From: Carcharhinus amblyrhynchos
Taxonomy: Eukaryota
DNA: 64,000 nucleotides
Direction: 5' to 3'
Assembly: GCA_965287045.1 (NCBI GenBank)
Contig: OZ336874.1
Location: 22,196,001-22,260,000, forward strand
Shown here: in pieces, positions 1 to 60,324 of the stretch
Position numbering within the stretch: the stretch's first letter is position 1
How the letters are laid out: each line of letters opens with the position of its first letter
Program-made: the position numbers and the translations under genes
The notes under the pieces: model-generated
What the model was told of the DNA's origin: nothing
Databases searched by the model: none
What the model saw: only the letters and a program-made list of their open reading frames with translations

Positions 1-455
1 TTTAATGTTATAAAACATCCCAAAATGCTCCACAGGAGCAAAACCAGACAAAGGCTGAGGACAAGCTGACAAAGGGGATATTTGGAGTGAACAAAAGCTT
101 GGTCAATGAATTTGCTGATTAGAATTGTTTTAAAGGAGAAGAGGTAAGGTGGGGGGGTGTATAATATGAAAGGAATTTGATGGTTTGCAGCCTAGGCAGC
201 TGAAGGCACAGCTGCAAATGGGGGAAAAGGAGTCGGGCTACACGTGACCATAAATATGGAACACAGATTTCAGGGAGTGTTGTCGGCCTACAGGAAGCAA
301 GGAATCAGGCAATGGAGGGGTTTGAACACAAGGATGTGAATTTTAAATCTGAGTCAACGTGGATCAGAAAGCTCAGCGCTGATGGGTGACTTGGCATGTG
401 TTAGAATACAAGACAGAAGAGACAGACTTTTGAAAGAGTCGAAGGTTATGGAAGG
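1..455 (-). mobile_element. Old L2/CR1-group LINE 3' fragment
   Basis: Decayed motifs such as gcctaggcagctgaaggca and ggatgtgaattttaaat, typical of the antisense L2 3' region. Confidence 0.5.
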
Positions 456-457
456 CA

Positions 458-632
458 GAGGCTGGATGATTAGCAGAAACAGTCAAATTATTAGTTGGAA
501 TAGTCAAGTATGAATAACAATAATAATAATAATTACACAGCCCCCACCTCCTACACCTTACCTCTTCTCTGGAATAATCAGGCTGGACGATTAGCAGGAA
601 TAGTCAAATTATTAGTTGGAATAGTCAAATAT
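458..632. repeat. Short direct repeat (~53 bp x2, offset 122)
   Basis: aggctggaYgattagcag.aa.agtcaaattattagttggaatagtcaa at ~458 and ~580. Confidence 0.85.
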
Positions 633-718
633 TAAGGTACAGAACCTTGGGCTAGGGTTTCAGCAAGAAGTCTTACAACACCAGGTTAAAGTCCAACAGG
701 TTTATTTGCTAGCAAACA

Positions 719-762
719 CCACTAGCTTTCAGAGCACTTGCTGCTTCTTCTTCGTCAGGTGA
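719..762 (-). ncRNA. Minimal hammerhead motif, inverted copy (stem II degenerate)
   Basis: Minus strand reads ucac-CUGACGA-agaagaagcagcaagugcucu-GAAA-gc-UA-gugg. Confidence 0.55.
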
Positions 763-802
763 ATGGGAGATGTTTTCACAAACAGGGCATATCATCTCCC
801 AC

Positions 803-843
803 TCACCTGACGAAGGAGCAGCCAGCGCTCCGAAAGCTAGTGG
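803..843 (+). ncRNA. Minimal type I hammerhead ribozyme motif (Penelope-associated)
   Basis: ucac-CUGACGA-a-GGAGC(agccagc)GCUCC-GAAA-gc-UA^gugg. Both core boxes are present, stem II has 5 bp, the palindrome AGCU replaces stem III, and stem I is ucac/gugg. Confidence 0.75.
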
Positions 844-979
844 CGTTTGCTACCAAATAAACCTGTTGGACTTTAACCTGGTGTGGTGAAACTTCTTACT
901 GTGTTTACCCCAGTCCAACGCTAGCATCTCCACATCATGACTAGGGTTTCAGCAGCAGAGGGAGCAGAGGCACCAACTT

Positions 980-1100
980 TGAGGGGATCAAGGGTTAAGG
1001 GGAAAACCCGGGAGAGTAGGGATGAAAATTGTATCAGTCATGATTGAATGGCGGAGCTGACTTGATAGGCCAAATGGCCAAATTCTGCTCCAATGTCATA
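980..1100 (+). mobile_element. CR1 LINE 3' tail
   Basis: gatcaagggtta...atcagtcatgattgaatggcggagc...ggccaaatggcc...tctgctcc. Confidence 0.7.
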
Positions 1101-4100
1101 TGCTAACTAGACCAATACCTGTGGTCAGTTTTTACACTTTGTTGATACAGTTAGAAAGAATAGGGAAATTAATCAGCAAATGCTGCATTTTCAGCACTCA
1201 CAAGTTGATTTCCTCGTCAGTAATTGTCACTGAGTTGACAAAGCAATTTCAAGCATTAGAGAAACAAGATTTTGGGAATGCTGGCATGCTGAATGAAGTA
1301 AATTGTTCACTTAATTAATCTCAGCCTACATTCCCACCAAGCCTCCTTTCTAAAATTGTGTGGTCCAGAGACAAAATGTTGGCGTTTTCATGATCTGGAT
1401 TACAGACAAGACACCCACAGAGCCAAGTACTGGAGGTCAACGGTGCCCTTAAAGATATTAGGTGCAGCTCAGGATGTCCCATTATTGTAATTGCTTTTAG
1501 TTAGCCTACGGCAATACAAGCTAGTTCATATTCTCGCCACTTACAATCCACTGCAAGTGGGGCTTTTTCGCTCAAGTTCTAGCTCATCCACATTCGCTTG
1601 AGTGAGTCTTATCAGTTCTCAGTTTGGGCAGTTGCACTATTGTGGGACATAATCAGTGAACCTCACCTGTCAAGAAGGGAAAGAACGGCTAAATAATGAG
1701 AAAATGAAACTCCTAATCAAATCAGCATTGTCATGCCATTTCTGGGTCATCTGGAAAGATATGTTAATCAACCTGGCATGTCTGTCAACGTACCAAGCCA
1801 ATTGAGAAGCTGATGGAAATAGAGCAAGCTACATAGAAGCACACACAAAAGGCAGTCCTTGTATGGTATTAGGAGTGTTTGAACTGTGTTGTTTTTCTAA
1901 TTAATATATTTATTTAGCTAATTGCTCATCCTGATAATGCTGTAATTCTGCCACCAATAATGTCAAATTAAAGTGGGTGGTTCCTTTCAGCCTTAATGCT
2001 GAATCCAACTGTATTTAAAAAATGCACTTCTCGTGCACATGCTTGCCCAATTTAACATTAGCTATCTGCAATTAAAAAAGCAAACACTTTGCAATGCAAG
2101 TTGTATAATTTTACTTGGCTTGTTTGTGGACAATATAACAATCCAATATTAAGTATCTGAATTCTTTTCAAGTTATTACTTTAGAAATATTATTGCAAGA
2201 AGATGAATGAGAATAATGTGGCATTTTCGCGTGTGATGGATAACATTAGAGTCTGGAAAGGAAGGAGACCTCATCTATTTTAAAATAAGGTTTCATCCGG
2301 TTGAAATGTGTAGCATCAGCATAGATTTCAATGCTGTTTTGCATTATCTTATTCCAGGCATCCTAACTTCACAAGAGATTCAAAGTGCACTAACCGAATG
2401 TTCAATAATCCCAAGATCATTTCGATTCAGCATGTAAACGTATGCACTAAAGCAGAGAAAATTGCAGTGCAGGGTCCAACTCTCATTTCAACACAATGAA
2501 TTGTCTTGTTTTCCTACCAGGCCATTTGGCTGCCTCTTTTCATTACCTCTTAACTGTTTGATGTCCAGAAATAATATTGCCCCGTTCCAGGGCCATATAG
2601 TTTCCTCTCACATCATTCAAAATTTAAAGTCAAGCAAAATTGTACAGTGACTGAAAAAGCCGAAAATGGTGCTGGTATGAAGGGGAAGGGGAAGAAGGAA
2701 GCACAAGGACATTCTGAAGCTTCTTCTGTCCAGCTCGACAGTTAAAGCTGAGCGCAGGCCTGACTGGCAACTCTCTCAAGAGGACAACAATGTGGCGGCA
2801 AGTGGAAATGGGAGCAGGGAAAGAGGAAAAGGAGAATATATTCTCAAAATTATCAAATACCCTCAGTGAAATAGAACTGTGATTGGATATTCATCAGATA
2901 AGCAGAGAAGTAAACATTTTGTTCCAATCCCATCAAGAAAGGTTAAAATGCATCTGACGGAAAGCCACGGGCTACACTTCATCTTACTTTTCTCCCCTCC
3001 CACGCTGATTTTAAAAAGATAACTTGAATTCCAGTTCACGTTATGTACATAAAATCGTATGAAGCTAATCTCAACCAGATGTCTGATGGTTTTTCTGGGT
3101 GGAGGAGAGTTTGTTGGTCAGACACTGGAGCCAAGAAATATTCCTTTCCAACATCCATCCTTCTGAGAATCTGAATCAATTCATGAGATAAGGATCACTT
3201 TTAATCAACAAATGCTCAATGCCACATTTCTGTAGTCTCAACCATCTTGTAACCATTTGTTGCTTGATAAATCATTGGAATAATTTATTTGCCAAACGCA
3301 CACACAGTTTCTGAAGTTGGTCACAAATAAAACGTGACAGAAGAGTCAACTAACCACCGAAAGTAGTGATCATGTACGTCATTCTCAGAAAGACAGATTT
3401 AGATTGCAGGAGTGACCAACCTCAACTTGGTTCTGTGACGTTATATTGAAATCACAAATTCTTAAGAACTGATGAAACCACATTACTCAACTGCCTAGAA
3501 TCATTACTGGATGTGAGAAGGTTGGGAAACAGAAAGCATTTTCTCTGAAACTGCGGAGTTTTTAAAAGATTGTTCATTTATGGGCTGTGACCACGTGTTT
3601 GTGCACTAATGGGCCAAATCTTCCAAGGAATAATAATCACTCCTACTTTGCTGTGACATGCCAGAGCTCCACATTTCTGGTTGGGACTTCCAGTCCCAGT
3701 GCCTCCATAAATACGGAGCGTAACTAAAATGGAACTGCTTCTTCAAAGCACTGGAGCATCGAGAAAGACAAGCCCCTTTTTATGACACTAGCTGCCATAT
3801 TCTGGTAAGAGTTAATTTAAATATCCCAAAGTTTCTTTGCAAAGCCACAGAGAAAACATAGCAGCATAAAAGGTTTAGGATGGCAGGTGGATGGGGTGGG
3901 AGGTAGATGAACTGGTACATTGACAGATGGATAGAGTAGTATGTGCAAAGTGGGACAGGTGAATAGAATGGCAGGGTGACAGGTAGGTGAGTGGGCATTT
4001 AGATTGGGAAGAGTTGTCAGGTCAGGTTGGTACGAGTCAGCAAAGTAGTTGCAGAAGGCGGGTTCAATGTGAATGACTGGGGGTGGTCAGCTGCACAGTT

Positions 4101-4830
4101 ACTCACACAGTTTTGTGTTTAAGAATGTGTCTCAGGAAAATTGTCCATCAGAAGTTCAAACTTTCCAGACAATTTCCACATGTGTTTGGACTTCTGAGGG
4201 GTCCCAACATGTATCTTGACAGGAAGGGGGCAGGGGGCATAGGGGGTACATCTGGTTTCTGGAAATCTAGAAATCAGAAGATCTGGGACAATACATTACA
4301 TGAAATGTTTTGAACATATTAAGTGGTAATAGAATTTACATTTCAAATTAAAATTCTTATGGTTTTATGCCTGATCTATATTCACTTCCATCTCAGTTTG
4401 AAATAAGCTCAGTATTGCATGTTGAATTGGGATTACAGCTACACTGTGAGACCAAAATATCATCTGTGGTACTTGCGTACACTTACTTTATAAATCATAG
4501 GATTCTGTATCAGTGCGGACAATGACAGAAGTGCATTAAATATCTACCAAAACTATGCAGACCCGGAAAAGCATGCAGCAATCTGTGTGCAATACTGATT
4601 TGTTATCAGTGCTGCCATTTTAGATCACAATCACTTGTTTTCCACTTTCCCTTATTCTTACACGGCTCAACATGCACCAGCAGCAGGAAGGACCCTCTGC
4701 CAGTACTAGTTAAAAGCATCAATTGCTTACTGGTGAGTAATGGTTGATGCCAACAGTCTTATCCTCCCTCTATCACTGAGAATCACAGCATATGCTTTGG
4801 CATAATGCAAATCTAAAGTCTCCACACACT

Positions 4831-5467
4831 AAATATTCTAAAGCAAATTTATAAAAGAATAATACCATACTGTATACGATATTAAACAAATTGCCTTTGT
4901 GTATTCCCTTATAGTGCCCATTTTCTGTATGCCTTTGCTTGTCTAGTTCTCCTTTGTGGTGCTACCCCACTGGCTGCAGAATGGCTGATGAAAAGCTGCT
5001 AACTTTCAATGGAGGAGACTGCAGATCGCCTTAAAGCGTAATGTTGTGATATTTTAGGGCTACAAACAGGGCCCTGGCTACAAACAGTACCATCTGAGTA
5101 AGGGTAGCAGTAGTTAGTAAGAACGGGTGAGATTTCTGTCCATTGCTCCAGACTACAACTTGCATGACGAAATGCGCGTGTTGACACAGCAACTCAGACT
5201 ACCTGAATCTTCTGTAGCACATCACACACCAAGAGCATCCTGTGACCTCACAATGACATTTGCTCATCCTTCTCCTCCTTGGAGGTTAGGATCTTCCCTT
5301 CCTAACAACACCGTAGTGTACCTACACCACATGACTTTCAGCACATCTATAAGGATGAAGTGAAGCAAGTGAACATTAGCTGGTACAAAGTTGGCATTAC
5401 ACTGAACGAGCGCAGGATAATTGTGCGTTGGAATCACTGTACCAGTTTTCAAAGGCTGTGTAATGTA
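4831..5467. repeat. Direct duplication, copy 1 (~637 bp)
   Basis: Near-identical to 5904-6540 (offset 1073). Paired ORF-track entries 5127/6200 and 4999/6072 reflect the same duplication. Confidence 0.95.
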
Positions 5468-5903
5468 GAACTCCTTGGCTTTTACGAAATATCTGGGCTC
5501 AGTCCATTCACAGTGTAGGACAGAAAACAAGTGCCATAAATGGAAAGAGCTTCATTCCTGTTCCATTTGTTTCGCTGTACTGAACAGCATTAAATATGGT
5601 TACAGTTCACATCTGTTTAAAACTATTATCAAATTAATTAATTGAGGATGTGCGAGTTAGTTATGTTAACTATTTCAGCCTCTAAAGTTACTGGCACTCA
5701 GGGTAAAGAAAAGTTGGCAAACTTTAATATAAATTCGGAGAGGGAGAAGCTCCAAAAAAATCATGCACCATTTTGTATCTTTTTAAAGTCACAAGCAAAT
5801 GTTACTGCATTACATTTGCAAACAAGGAGAAACTTTCCACATCTGTTTCATAAAGTCGAAAGCTCTTGAATAGCTTTCCCAAAACGCATTTTGGTTCGAA
5901 CAA

Positions 5904-6540
5904 AAATATCCTAAAGTAAATTTATAAAAGAATAATACCACACTGTACACAATATTAAACAAATTGCCTTTGTGTATTCCCTTATAGTGCCCATTTTCTG
6001 TATGCCTTTGCTTGTCTAGTTCTCCTTTGTGGTGCTACCCCACTGGCTGCAGAATGGCTGGTGAAAAGCTGCTAACTTTCAATGGAGGAGACTGCAGATC
6101 GCCTTAAAGCGTAACGTTGTGATATTTTAGGGCTACAAACAGGGCCCTGGCTACAAACAGTACCATCTGAGTAAGGGTAGCAGTAGTTAGTAAGAACGGG
6201 TGAGATTTCTGTCCATTGCTCCAGACTACAACTTGCATGACGAAATGCGTGTGTTGACACAGCAACTCAGACTACCTGAATCTTCTGTAGCACATCACAC
6301 ACCAAGAGCATCCTGTGACCTCACAATGACATTTGCTCATCCTTCTCCTCCTTGGAGGTTAGGATCTTCCCTTCCTAACAACACCGTCGTGTACCTACAC
6401 CACATGACTTTCAGCACATCTATAAGGATGAAGTGAAGCAAGTGAACATTAGCTGGTACAAAGTTGGCATTACACTGAACGAGTGCAGGATAATTGTGCA
6501 TTGGAATCACTGTACCAGTTTTCAAAGGCTGTGTAATGTA
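5904..6540. repeat. Direct duplication, copy 2
   Basis: Differs from copy 1 by scattered substitutions; separated by a ~436-bp unique spacer. Confidence 0.95.
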
Positions 6541-7184
6541 AGCAACTGAGGAACTGAACTATGACACAAATTACCGAGAATAAAACAGTCAGAGGTGATC
6601 AAACTTGTACAGTCAATTGGAAGTAGGAACATCGCCTACACAATACAGCTTGCCATGAACTGGAGCAGATTCACATATGCCGCTACTGGCATATAACATA
6701 TTCCAATATTCTTCATTGTGCAGACGAACTGTAATGAAACTGCTGTGCGATTTCCCCGCACTGTCTCATGTTCACAGTCTTTAAGTGCACGTGCATCATC
6801 AGGTGCATCAAAATGACATGCTGACAGTTTTGGAACACTGCAACATATTACTGTTTTGATTGATTCAGTGCTTCAACACTTGTATTTCTTGAGACTGACC
6901 CGAATTGAGAAGGGAAACTGAAAGGAGAAATTGAGAAAAGAAACTGTCCCATTTCTATGGAAACTAAGATTAAATTGAGAATGGAAACAAAAACTTCTGA
7001 GGAGACTAAAGCTGACCAAAACCACATAAAAGAACCATCAGAGTTTAAAATGATGATCTCAATAGTGCAGTACAGGCAGGCCGAGAATAGAGAAATAAAT
7101 AATTACTGTAGCTGTTTGTGTTACTTGAAGATAACATTGGTGGATCCAGGTCATCTAGACTGTCAAGAGCTTTGGGCAGAAGTT

Positions 7185-7285
7185 GGGATTGGGATATTGA
7201 ATTTGATGATCAGTCATGATCAAATTGAGTGACGAAGCAGGCTCGAAGGGTGGTATGGTCTGCTCCTGCTTCTATGGTTCTGTAA
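7185..7285 (+). mobile_element. CR1 LINE 3' tail
   Basis: gatgatcagtcatgatca...gcaggctcgaagggtggtatggtctgctcctgcttct; another copy at ~60895-60995. Confidence 0.65.
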
Positions 7286-7736
7286 GCAGAGCTTACATCT
7301 GCAGAGCACAGATGTACACCATTTTTGATGAAGACCTGTGGAATTCAAGTTGGCTGAAGTGCTGCTAGTGGCTGGGACTCAAATTAAATCCTACAAGATG
7401 ATCTAGGATGGAATGTTACCAACCAACTGAACCCAGAGGTAACATAAATTGGACACTGAAAGACATTTAAGAGTCCAAATCAAAAAAGCATGTTGATGAA
7501 CAGGCTGGAACTTTGTAGTTTATCGAGAGGAGGATACAGACTTGGACGCATCTTAAAGCTCCTCAAACTCTAAAAGATCGCCTTTATTTGGCCAGACGTT
7601 GAATTGCACATAACATGCGTTATGTTAAAACCACCTCTATTCACAATGAACAATATGTTTAACGTAGCACAGGGAGATTGGATCCTGACTGAACACTCAA
7701 ATCTCACAAAACTGGTTCAGGCACAGCAATATTTTA

Positions 7737-8017
7737 ATTAGTTTAAGTTTATTTATTAGTGTCACAAGTAGGTTTACATTAGCACTGCAATAAAGTTACT
7801 GTGAAAATACCCTCATCGTCAGAATCTGGAGCCTGTGGGTATACTAAGGGAGAATTTAGCTAAACCAAAGCACCTAACCAGCACGTCTTTCAGACTGTGG
7901 GAGGAAACCCATGCAGACACGGGGAGAACGTGCAGACTCCGCACAGGCGGTGACCCAAGCCAGGAATCGAACCTGGGTCCCTGGCGCTGTGAGGCAGCAA
8001 CTGTGAATCATGCTGCA
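7737..8017 (-). mobile_element. HE1-like V-SINE, tail type B
   Basis: tRNA-derived head, V-domain (tgcacgttctccccgtgtctgc), and tail ttttcacagtaact...cttgtgacactaataaataaact. Confidence 0.85.
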
Positions 8018-9294
8018 TCCTTAATTATTTCCGAAAGAATGAAAGAGCAATGGACAGTACTCAAAGTAGCGGCTCCGACGATTAGCATAACTTAAATAAA
8101 GAAAATATCCTTTTATCGTTTCTGTCATTAGTTCACTTTGGTTGATTTAAGTAATAATCTGTGCTTTCCACGTGTATCATTAATAGAAGGGGACGCTCAT
8201 TAAAGAAAATGGAAAACCATGGATTGTGCATAGCAGGAGTTTACATAAAGTGGGCCAGAGTTTAAATTTGGATTGCCAGAGGGTTAAATCAGTTAGCCTC
8301 TGAAGACAGAAACAGGGATTGCAATACGTGATTACCCTGTGCCCATTCAGCGAAATGCAGGCAGGAGGCCAACTTCATGTTGCCTGCTCATTATAATCAG
8401 TTCTGTGTGCAACTAATGCTAACCGTGGTGTTCACTGGCTGTACGTTTTAGCTGAGGTCTGTATGGTTACTTCCAACTTAAAGCCAGCCTGCACTGCCTA
8501 AAGGGAAGGTACACTGTGGCAAATGTAAGCACTGAGATCATTAAGAATATAGTGTGCTGTACAATAATCAAAATGGTTCACTGTAAGGCAGCATGTACAC
8601 CGAGGTTTCTGGATGCTGTGCTGGGGATTTTGATAGAAGAAATGAAATGAAGCAGAGATGTCTTGGATCTTCAGTGGGACTAGAGGCCTTTGACGTAGCT
8701 GCTCAGAAAGCAATGGCAAGAGATGGTGTCAAAGGTCAGTGCCAGAGGTGTAGCTTCAAGAACATGGATACGGTGCAGGAGAAAGTTTAACACTGTCACA
8801 CAAATAGCCAAAGATCACTGAATATATTTTCAATTGTTAAAGCTACTTGCCATACTCCGACCCACCTGCCAACAATATCTACCAAACAGGACACATATCT
8901 CACATTCAAATGCTTCATCTCACCCTCACTTGCACATACTTAACTCTGTTGCAAGTCTCAAAGCCACATCCCAGCTTGTAGATACTGCCAACTATTTCAA
9001 CCAGAACGGCCACGTGATCTGCACAGATTGCTTGGCATTCTTCACCATTTCATTCTCTTTTGTATGAGAAGTTGGTGCACAGGAATTAATTGAAGGAGAG
9101 AGGCATGTCTGCTGGAGTCTTTGCTAAAAACTTAGGGCTGAATTGCAATACTTGATGCATTGAGAATGTTGTTGGAAAGCTTGTGGTCAGCATGGAGGTA
9201 TCTATCTAGCACCAACTTGCACAGAGCTATGCACAGAACCTGGAACCCCATCTTTTCCAGTGTAGAAATGTGGCCAGCTCCTTAAGAACAGATT

Positions 9295-44874: not shown

Positions 44875-51380
<6,506 letters not shown>

Positions 51381-51410
51381 CTGCGTGAGACAGATCGGAG
51401 AGTACATCAT
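51381..51410 (-). CDS. NFIB: Nuclear factor I/B, coding part of exon 1 (MMYSPICLTQ)
   Basis: Minus strand reads gcaccgcg ATG ATG TAC TCT CCG ATC TGT CTC ACG CAG|gtagtt. The peptide matches the canonical vertebrate NFIB N-terminus. The phase-0 GT donor fits the phase-0 acceptor of exon 2. Too short to appear in the ORF track. Confidence 0.95.
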
Positions 51411-52450: not shown

Positions 52451-53559
52451 CAAACTTACCGCACAGCCCAAAAGCTATGCGCAGGATAATATGGGAGTTT
52501 CTTTCTCTGAAAAGAAATCATTTTGGTTTCTGTTTGCATTGGGAAATCGTCACTGTGTCCCGCTCTGTAAGGTCCCAATATGTTGGGGGGGGGGGGGGGT
52601 GTAATTAGTGTATATTATTTAGAATTAATCCAGCAGTTTTGTGTGGTTCCGCCTTCAAACTAATGTTTTCAGCATGTTCGCACGGTTGGGTCCACTGATA
52701 TGTACCCATAATCTCTCCCCTGTCGGAATGCAAGTGCGGGCTCACTGGTGGGCAATCGGACTAAATCCAGTGATTTCTCATTGAGTGTAAAGTTACCGGA
52801 GTGGGAATTGCACAACTCCTGTATTTTTCCCCCCCTGTATTTCAACCTGGTGTTGTGAGACTTCTCACTTTCTTTTAGAACGCATTTTTCTAGCTAAGAT
52901 GTGGCCACTTGCCCATCTCGCCTGTTCATCTGGATAGCTTATATTATTTTTTTTCTCTCTGAGTATCTGGTTACTTTCCTCTCTCTTTTGAATGTACAGT
53001 ATCTCATCGCCCGGGTTAATATCATCCGTTATAGGTTCCTCCTTGCTTCCTTTTTATTACAAGATTGTGCAATAGTTTTAAATCACGTAGAAACAAAGTT
53101 CTGGCCTGAACTTTTTTTTTGTAACTTAGTTATTTTAAAGCAAGCCTTTCCTTGCCATTCGAAGTTGTCTAGGGGTAGGAAATCCATTAATAAATTTGTC
53201 TTAATTCTGCACAGAGTATAATTTACAGGGGCGTAGATAGCTTGAAACCGATATGGTTGCATTTGGTCCCCTTGTAATCTTTCTTAAAAAATTCTGTTTC
53301 GCGGTAAATTCAACTTAAACCATCCACTAACTTTGTTTCCTCTTTACTCCTTTCGTTCTTTATACCATACTGTACTTCGACCACTTTCCCAACTTCTAAT
53401 CAGTCACTGCATCTACAATGGGAATGTCATTGAAAAGCTCCCAATTCAGCACTCTTACCTAAACGAGGTTTAATTATTAACAAAGAAAATTACATTTAGT
53501 AATTTAATTTATTTTTTTTACACACACACACAAAAGTGCACCTGTTCAAAATCCAGCGG

Positions 53560-59020: not shown

Positions 59021-59560
59021 AAGGATGTGGAGATGCCAGCGTTGGACTGGGGTAAGCATAGTAAAAAGTCTGACAAAACCAGGTTAAAGTACAACAAGTT
59101 TATTTGATAGTACAAGCCACAAGGTTTCAGAGCGCTGCTCTTTCATCAGGTGAGTGGGAGTCATGTTCACAAACAGGGTATAATAAGACACAAACTCAAT
59201 TGACAAGATAATGGTTGGAATGCGAGTCTTTACAGGTAATCAAGTCTTAAAAGGTACAGACAGTGTGAGTGGAGAGAGGGTTAAGCCATAGGTTAAAGAG
59301 ATGTGTATTGTCTCCACATTACACATCTCTTTAAGCTGTGCCTAACCCTCTCTCCACTCATTGTCTGTACCTTTAAGACTTGATTACCTGTAAGGATTTG
59401 CATTCCAACCATTATCTTGTAAATTGAGTTTGTGTCTTATTATCCCCTGTTTGTGAACATGACTCGCACTCACCCGATGAAGGAGCTGCACTCCAAAAGC
59501 TTGTGGCTTGTACTACCAAATAAATCTGTTGGACTTGAACCTGGTGTTGTGAGACTTCTT
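59021..59560 (-). mobile_element. Penelope-like fold-back element, same family as 666-940, inserted into a CR1
   Basis: Arms of ~245 bp (~59063-59307 and ~59320-59560) with a 12-nt loop. Unpaired tail 59023-59062 is the reverse complement of ~897-936. Direct repeat ctttttgtgga at 59010-59020 and 59558-59568. Confidence 0.85.
59117..59153 (-). ncRNA. Minimal hammerhead ribozyme motif
   Basis: Minus strand reads ucac-CUGAUGA-a-AGAGC(agc)GCUCU-GAAA-cc-UU-gugg. The plus-strand partner at 59470-59506 has mutated boxes (CCGAUGA, AAAA). Confidence 0.65.
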
Positions 59561-60324
59561 TTTGTGGACAAGACACACCTGGGGGAAATTCCACACTGCT
59601 GAATAGATGACAGCATTGTTACTGTATTAGAATAGCTTTGGCTCAGGGTGTAGCTATTCCTGGAGGACAAGCCTTCAGTACTGTTGTCGAATATGTTCAG
59701 GGCCCTTAACCTTTGCTGTATCCAGTAACTTCAGCCCTTTCTTGATATTATATGGAGTGGATCAAATTAGCTGAAGACTAGCATCTGTGATGCTAGGGAC
59801 CTCCAGAGGAGGCCAAGACACTTCTGACTAAAGATATTTGCAAATACTTCAGCCTTGACTTTTGTGCTGATGTGCTGGGCTCCCCCATCATTGAGGACAT
59901 GGATATTTGTGGAACATTCTCTCTCAGTGAGTTGTATAGTTGCCCCCACCATCCCCAATTGGACATGGCAGGATTGCAGAGCTTAGATATGATCGCTTGG
60001 TTGTGGTATTGTTTAATTGTCTATGACTTGTGCTTCCACTGTTTGGCATGCAAATAGTCATGTGTTATAGATTCAACAAGTTGATAGCTTATTTTTAAAT
60101 ATGCCTGGTATACCCTCCTGCATTTTTTTATGGTAACCGGACCAACGTGAAAGAAAGTAGACACAATGTACTTTAGGAAATTAAGGTCGTTTAAAAAAGC
60201 AGATGTGCCCCTCTAATTCTACAGCAATGAATCAAAGACCACTAAACGCTAACTAAGCCAGATTTTCTTAATCTAACTAAATAAGTTAGCAAATATATAT
60301 TAAATTTGGAAGATTTCAGCAGGT

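Follow-up and report, generated by a model that had tools for sequence, protein, structure and literature searches.

The locus described here raises the question of what a short fold-back insert with a hammerhead ribozyme motif on each strand is, and how it came to lie in an intron of the gene NFIB in a shark. The window, by which we mean the whole 64,000-nucleotide stretch of Carcharhinus amblyrhynchos DNA that was analysed, holds this insert near its left end. We are confident that the insert is a pair of head-to-head, 5'-truncated 3' ends of a Neptune-type Penelope-like element (PLE) set in a 14-bp target duplication, likely the outcome of one old event and likely inert. The locus is thus a real, ordinary PLE insertion scar, and what stays of interest is mechanism, namely microhomology at two ends and arms that come from different pLTR variants.

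A perfect 14-bp direct repeat, CTAGGGTTTCAGCA (100% identity between the copies), encloses 275 bp that divide into two inverted arms and a 39-bp tail (Table 1), an arrangement that the first-pass annotation had described correctly. Alignment of one arm with the other gave 110 columns, comprising 95 matches, 11 substitutions and 4 gap columns, for a divergence of 11/106 positions, and the two inverted-repeat segments are predicted to form a single long hairpin on either strand (z = -19 for plus and -23 for minus, relative to 100 shuffles). The left arm starts 34 nt upstream of hammerhead position C3 (-34) and the right arm 14 nt upstream (-14), and they meet at a central junction, 792/793, that is blunt and has no palindrome. 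No contig bridging both flanks across the insert was found in 7 distinct sequencing runs, where a gap in contigs is uninformative; as the empty site was not seen, the duplication of the target is deduced from the repeat.

Table 1. Features of the insert and its surroundings, in window coordinates.
Feature	Position	Strand	Remarks
Target-site duplication, left copy	652..665	+	14 bp
Left-end microhomology	661-665		Also matches the family short end, with one mismatch
Left arm, inverted 5'-truncated PLE 3' end (pLTR)	666..792	-	Short end, without tail
Degenerate minimal hammerhead	719..762	-	Boxes kept; GAA duplication; G10.1-C11.1 pair lost
Right arm, direct 5'-truncated PLE 3' end (pLTR)	793..901	+	
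Intact minimal type I hammerhead	803..843	+	CUGACGA 807-813, extra A814, GAAA 832-835, AGCU palindrome
PLE tail, parent pLTR-to-ORF junction	902..940	+	Ends at ORF start codon ATG 937-939
Target-site duplication, right copy	941..954	+	
Right-end microhomology	941-943		CTA, also the continuation of the parent ORF
NFIB exon 2 (DNA-binding domain)	44929..45459	-	5' end of host intron 2
Second independent fold-back of the family	59024..59566		543 bp; arms are longer and it has its own duplication of 10-11 bp

Just to the left of the insert is a 56-nt direct repeat (459-514 and 580-635, 91% identity) whose copies are spaced by an (AAT)n run together with a stretch rich in pyrimidines, and no further copy of it was found in the window. 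To the right, at 960-1100, is a fragment of a different high-copy repeat, and contig depth was very high at 997-1119 in four of four sequencing runs.

Nearest named homologues of the exon listed in Table 1 are shark NFIB proteins (98-100% identity), and this exon agrees with a PDB NFIB chain at the paralogue-specific positions shown. With exon 1 at 51381-51410 on the minus strand, exon 3 at C5:22070255-22070308 and later exons further on, the positions of exons 2 and 3 place the insert inside the ~170-kb minus-strand intron 2, ~44 kb downstream of exon 2, where it had originally been assigned. Since the NFIB exons lie on the minus strand, the left-arm motif is in the sense of NFIB, as had also been proposed, and the right-arm motif is antisense. 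A weak match (8/12 residues) to an alternative first exon in an NFIB isoform of another shark was seen at 53227-53262 on the minus strand.

Contigs from the runs of four other organisms span a junction of the insert, with 32, 29-34, 27 and 27 element letters; the threshold for a junction-spanning contig was 31 element letters, which the contig with 32 passes. It seems likely that the insertion is old and common to other organisms.

The arms belong to a very large family. A 29-mer taken from the sequence downstream of the hammerhead has at least 23,553 exact matches in the genome, and a 28-mer from the upstream side has 4,385 (0 for the reversed-pattern control in each case). Walking inward from the arms led to a GIY-YIG-type coding region, and in one parent copy (L091), next to which lies an inverted copy of 259 bp, an uninterrupted ORF of 893 aa encodes DKG and YIDD motifs, a CHSNLCKTC linker and a VYLIRC...YIG motif. 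This ORF matched Pfam RVT_1 (E=2.4e-9); the GIY-YIG match, found on another copy (L032), was weak (E=5.9e-4, below the Pfam cut-off). PF00078 is present in homologues of the parent ORF and PF01541 often is, with close relatives among shark proteins and more distant ones that share the domain set. The CHSNLCKTC linker, at residue 755, conforms to the CX2-5CxxC motif between reverse transcriptase (RT) and endonuclease, which Neptune and Nematis share according to the accessible text of 10.1101/2021.04.23.441226; the sequence thus points to a Neptune-type endonuclease-bearing PLE as the probable parent, by way of a linker motif common to Neptune and Nematis. The parent with RT plus GIY-YIG that the first-pass annotation had proposed to look for was thus found.

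The arm and tail of the window insert align to L091 and to two further copies, L172 and L181. Right arm and tail differ from the 3' end of L172 at 8 of 149 positions, and L172 has GIY-YIG coding sequence upstream, which bears out the option of a truncated PLE insertion that had been suggested at the outset. L181 (G000:C1:80677000-80686900, insertion 2751-8222), which is related to the subfamily of the window insert, is a complete decayed insertion with an inverted truncated copy, a truncated direct copy, a full ORF, a final pLTR with tail, and a 13-bp duplication; the hammerhead helix II of its internal pLTR is unlike that of its two terminal ones. In young copies (L062-L100) the arms are ~99% identical and open frames reach 909 codons. 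With a parent ORF, 5'-truncated inverted copies, a tail at one end and a target duplication, the window insert has the properties of endonuclease-bearing (EN+) PLEs.

Some family copies in the first 5 Mb of C1 recur with identical flanks, in the groups L123, L127, L141 and L145; L126, L129, L144 and L147; and L125 and L128. These lie inside larger duplicated segments, and one group fuses a piece of the 5' end of the ORF directly to the 3' UTR.

Among the loci examined were 78 head-to-head pairs, or 74 after removal of shared flanks, spanning 89-4,993 bp. Exactly one tail was present in 57 of the 74. A duplication score of at least 9, which was reached by 1/300 random pairs in the control for direct repeats, was found in 40/74; of the pairs that lack a duplication, some may be unrelated copies that happen to be neighbours. 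In all 39 analysable duplication-bearing pairs (39/40, with L032 dropped), one tail end near the start codon was combined with one short end ~36 nt upstream, and the duplications were 9-16 bp long (median 12). Several anchors were used to gather the loci, and 29 loci were picked for their likeness to the window insert, so these proportions are not genome-wide.

The range of lengths and junctions bears on a reading that we regard as very unlikely, in which the insert is a non-autonomous, retrozyme- or MITE-like palindromic unit of ~275 bp copied by PLE enzymes. The first-pass annotation had offered this mini-element as an alternative, and a DNA search does return many look-alikes of 254-307 bp. 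These were picked by their similarity to the query, however, and each has its own central junction; unit length is continuous up to 5 kb. The 7-nt-loop variant of the motif, which is the one that the window insert carries, has 282 exact genome matches, and among distinct loci with this variant an inverted partner is present in 16/29, in units of 232-1,412 bp. Animal non-LTR retrozymes are described in the available text of 10.64898/2026.07.22.740005 as head-to-tail tandems with at least two hammerheads on the same strand, whereas the units found here are inverted with one motif per strand, and in place of a fixed amplified monomer they vary from 89 to 4,993 bp with differing junctions. A cluster of arm starts 2-10 nt before the hammerhead core (15/96, in a set partly selected for the motif, vs 4 in the preceding 50 nt) also fits a recurring unit, and explains why similar-sized stumps recur. 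On balance the mini-element reading is largely refuted.

The same cluster of arm starts has a TATA-like word ~30 nt upstream, as was likewise noted for Adineta pLTRs in the accessible text of PMC3846280, and transcription may start just before the hammerhead core. Two other patterns in the arm starts were considered and set aside. A pile-up at +17 to +50 from the core consists mostly of alignment breaks at subfamily differences, and starts at the predicted cut site (+33) are represented by 2/96 within 3 nt (+30 and +32), the window insert itself being at -14/-34.

The right-arm motif agrees in every element with what the first-pass annotation claimed: the conserved boxes, a 5-bp helix II (815-819/827-831), the AGCU palindrome in place of helix III, and a short helix I of three Watson-Crick pairs and one G-U, with a predicted cut after A839. 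It has the CUGANGA and GAAA boxes, helix II with the G10.1-C11.1 pair, helix I and palindromic 15.2-16.2 of the minimal type I hammerhead, and its pattern occurs once in the window and in none of 100 shuffles. The claim that the left arm has the same boxes holds for the boxes themselves, but a 3-nt insertion (the GAA duplication, which follows A9) and a C-to-U change at 11.1 disrupt helix II, and the motif falls outside the minimal type I description. Neither motif was recognised in the Rfam scan that had been recommended as a check, which found no hammerhead family at E<=10 in positions 1-3000. Matches to miRNA precursors (mir-452, 32.6 bits; mir-188, 25.8 bits) were rejected against gathering scores of 70 and 72, and such weak matches are attributable to the hairpin.

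Folding predictions support the competition between hairpin and ribozyme that had been anticipated, and make it one-sided. The predicted probability of the plus helix II is 0.97 in isolation but 0.00 once the whole insert is folded, and the penalty for imposing a hammerhead fold would be 55 kcal/mol on the plus strand and 62 kcal/mol on the minus strand. Because the layout is head-to-head, the complement is always transcribed first, and because the motifs are on different strands no dimer can fold in cis. According to these models both hammerheads are likely locked in the hairpin and inactive in the window insert. Published minimal hammerheads had no activity as monomers and low activity as dimers in the portion of PMC4209133 available, and the hammerhead of an Anolis element, as reported in the accessible text of PMC11167929, cleaves only with protein and is dispensable for insertion.

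Conservation was assessed in 30 dispersed copies picked with an anchor that lies outside the motif, with three rows truncated in the motif region retained. Identity to the majority was 0.907-0.915 in the core (136/150 and 107/117 positions) vs 0.900-0.906 in the flanks (454/501 and 1050/1167), and G12, which is in a CpG, matched the majority in 19/29 copies. The boxes are thus no better kept than the flanks, an outcome that the first-pass annotation had itself named as counting against its ribozyme reading. Among 12 recurrent variants, helix II covaries: pairs 10.1-10.3 are paired in 12/12, with G-C/A-U swaps at 10.2 and 10.3, in a set of motifs selected by their core and without control for relatedness among variants. 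As helix II covaries between subfamilies and the core decays like the flanks, it is likely that the motif is selected in active parents and not in inserted stumps, which would decay neutrally. The young subfamily (L062-L100) has many helix II variants, and position 17 is mostly U, not A (36/47 motifs).

Another observation concerns splicing. Read on the opposite strand, helix I and the CUGA box give CAG/GTGAGT, which resembles the consensus of a 5' splice donor. This site lies in NFIB sense at 799-810 on the minus strand, and every inverted copy in the family has one on each strand.

A donor-like site on the NFIB strand would suit a regulatory role for the insert, co-opted within intron 2 as hairpin or ribozyme, be it as a dsRNA substrate, a cryptic splice donor or a means of transcript cleavage, as would the very stable hairpin predicted in NFIB sense and the apparent presence of the insertion in other organisms. 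We nevertheless think this highly improbable, as the damaged hammerhead is the one in NFIB sense, the arms have diverged, and the same family is represented in the 264-kb NFIB region (G000:C5:21996001-22260000) by four or more fold-back units as well as several single fragments, as expected of a high-copy repeat.

How such an insertion forms can be outlined for the PLE reading. The GIY-YIG endonuclease of the element would make a staggered cut, and each DNA 3' end would pair by a few bases with element RNA and prime reverse transcription. One end would do so at the short-end site; the other would use the ORF start codon, which lies ~36 nt beyond it, and would thereby produce the tail. Both cDNAs would end early (after ~130 and ~150 nt in the window insert) and then be joined, and gap filling would produce the target duplication, with the hammerheads as passengers of the pLTR.

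Microhomology, scored as overlap of the duplication with the continuation of the element, was compared with a null in which the same pipeline was run on simulated insertions. At the short end the mean was 2.0 nt vs 0.9-1.0 in the null (P<0.0001), and at the tail end there was a modest excess, with a mean of 1.8 nt vs 1.2-1.4 (P = 0.003-0.04). Against priming through microhomology, the accessible text of Frangieh et al. (PMC11167929) describes in vitro initiation at a site that has no homology to the cut DNA. The two arms were also compared in 47 pairs in which both reach the hammerhead, 44 of them readable. Helix II had the same length in both arms in 34/44 pairs, where 12.5 would be expected at random, and unequal lengths in 10/44, including 7/44 in which one arm has the recurrent 13-nt variant and the other the recurrent 17-nt variant.

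The competing account, for which we would give rather low but appreciable odds, is self-priming, in which one cDNA or template folds back and both arms come from a single molecule. It was proposed for Adineta PLEs from palindromes at junctions (PMC3846280, accessible text), and both the excess of arms with a shared helix II length and the ~99% identity of arms in young copies are in keeping with it. Matching arms are also what self-priming predicts, so the 34/44 weigh against double priming. A fold-back copy could not, however, mix 13-nt and 17-nt variants, and L181 bears both of them in its two direct pLTRs; target microhomology is present at both outer ends, at two different fixed sites, and the junction of the window insert is blunt.

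Microhomology at both ends, together with arms of different pLTR variants, favours priming from both target ends over self-priming. From the genomic scars we infer that such priming usually uses one transcript or subfamily, and sometimes two different pLTRs. The fuller proposal, which we hold with even confidence for and against, is that each of the two 3' ends at the staggered cut uses 1-5 nt of microhomology to prime at its own fixed RNA site, the two sites sometimes being on different pLTR copies, and that many cDNAs run off the RNA 5' end ~6 nt before the core, marking the pLTR transcription start. Priming of this kind would account for inverted pLTRs and for a tail on one side with no need of self-priming.

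PLE integration, which is left open in the accessible text of the in vitro study (PMC11167929), can be read out statistically from the short inverted insertions that this shark genome holds in their thousands. Discordant arms, and microhomology on both sides, can tell priming from both target ends apart from self-priming. Double priming, if true, would give a single explanation for inverted pLTR and tail, and bears on the use of PLE proteins for DNA insertion. In the literature covered, which had most subscription papers and supplements outside its scope, we found no paper on this shark PLE family or on twin priming in PLEs.

Several known systems resemble the window insert in part, each being compared here through the accessible text of its report. 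Like non-LTR retrozymes (10.64898/2026.07.22.740005) it is protein-free, PLE-derived and carries a type I hammerhead, but it is inverted and dispersed and its length is not fixed. With the minimal hammerheads of PLEs (PMC4209133), among which pairs of motifs on opposite strands, spaced by 100-700 bp, were already published, it shares the lack of helix III, palindromic 15.2-16.2, an extra base between 9 and 10.1, the G10.1-C11.1 pair, a short helix I and a variable helix II; it differs in its degenerate minus-arm motif, and sharks are absent from the text of that report examined.

Poseidon PAc from Anolis (PMC11167929) likewise has two adjacent reverse-transcription start sites that delimit a tail, and its protein cuts and extends both target strands, as the proposed shark route would have it. 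It belongs to a different clade, with a start site 111-118 nt into the ORF that is not target-homologous, whereas that of the shark element is at the start codon and has a small microhomology excess. The closest likeness is to the EN+ PLEs, including Adineta Pen2a_Av (PMC3846280) and those of Craig et al. 2021 (10.1101/2021.04.23.441226), for which an inverted pLTR, a one-sided tail and a target duplication were already described: a head-to-head, inverted 5'-truncated copy, a tail of 30-40 bp at one end that runs into the ORF start, and a target duplication of ~9-16 bp. What sets the window insert apart from these is its shark host, a very high copy number, and arms cut to ~130-150 nt, which is why it has no coding sequence.
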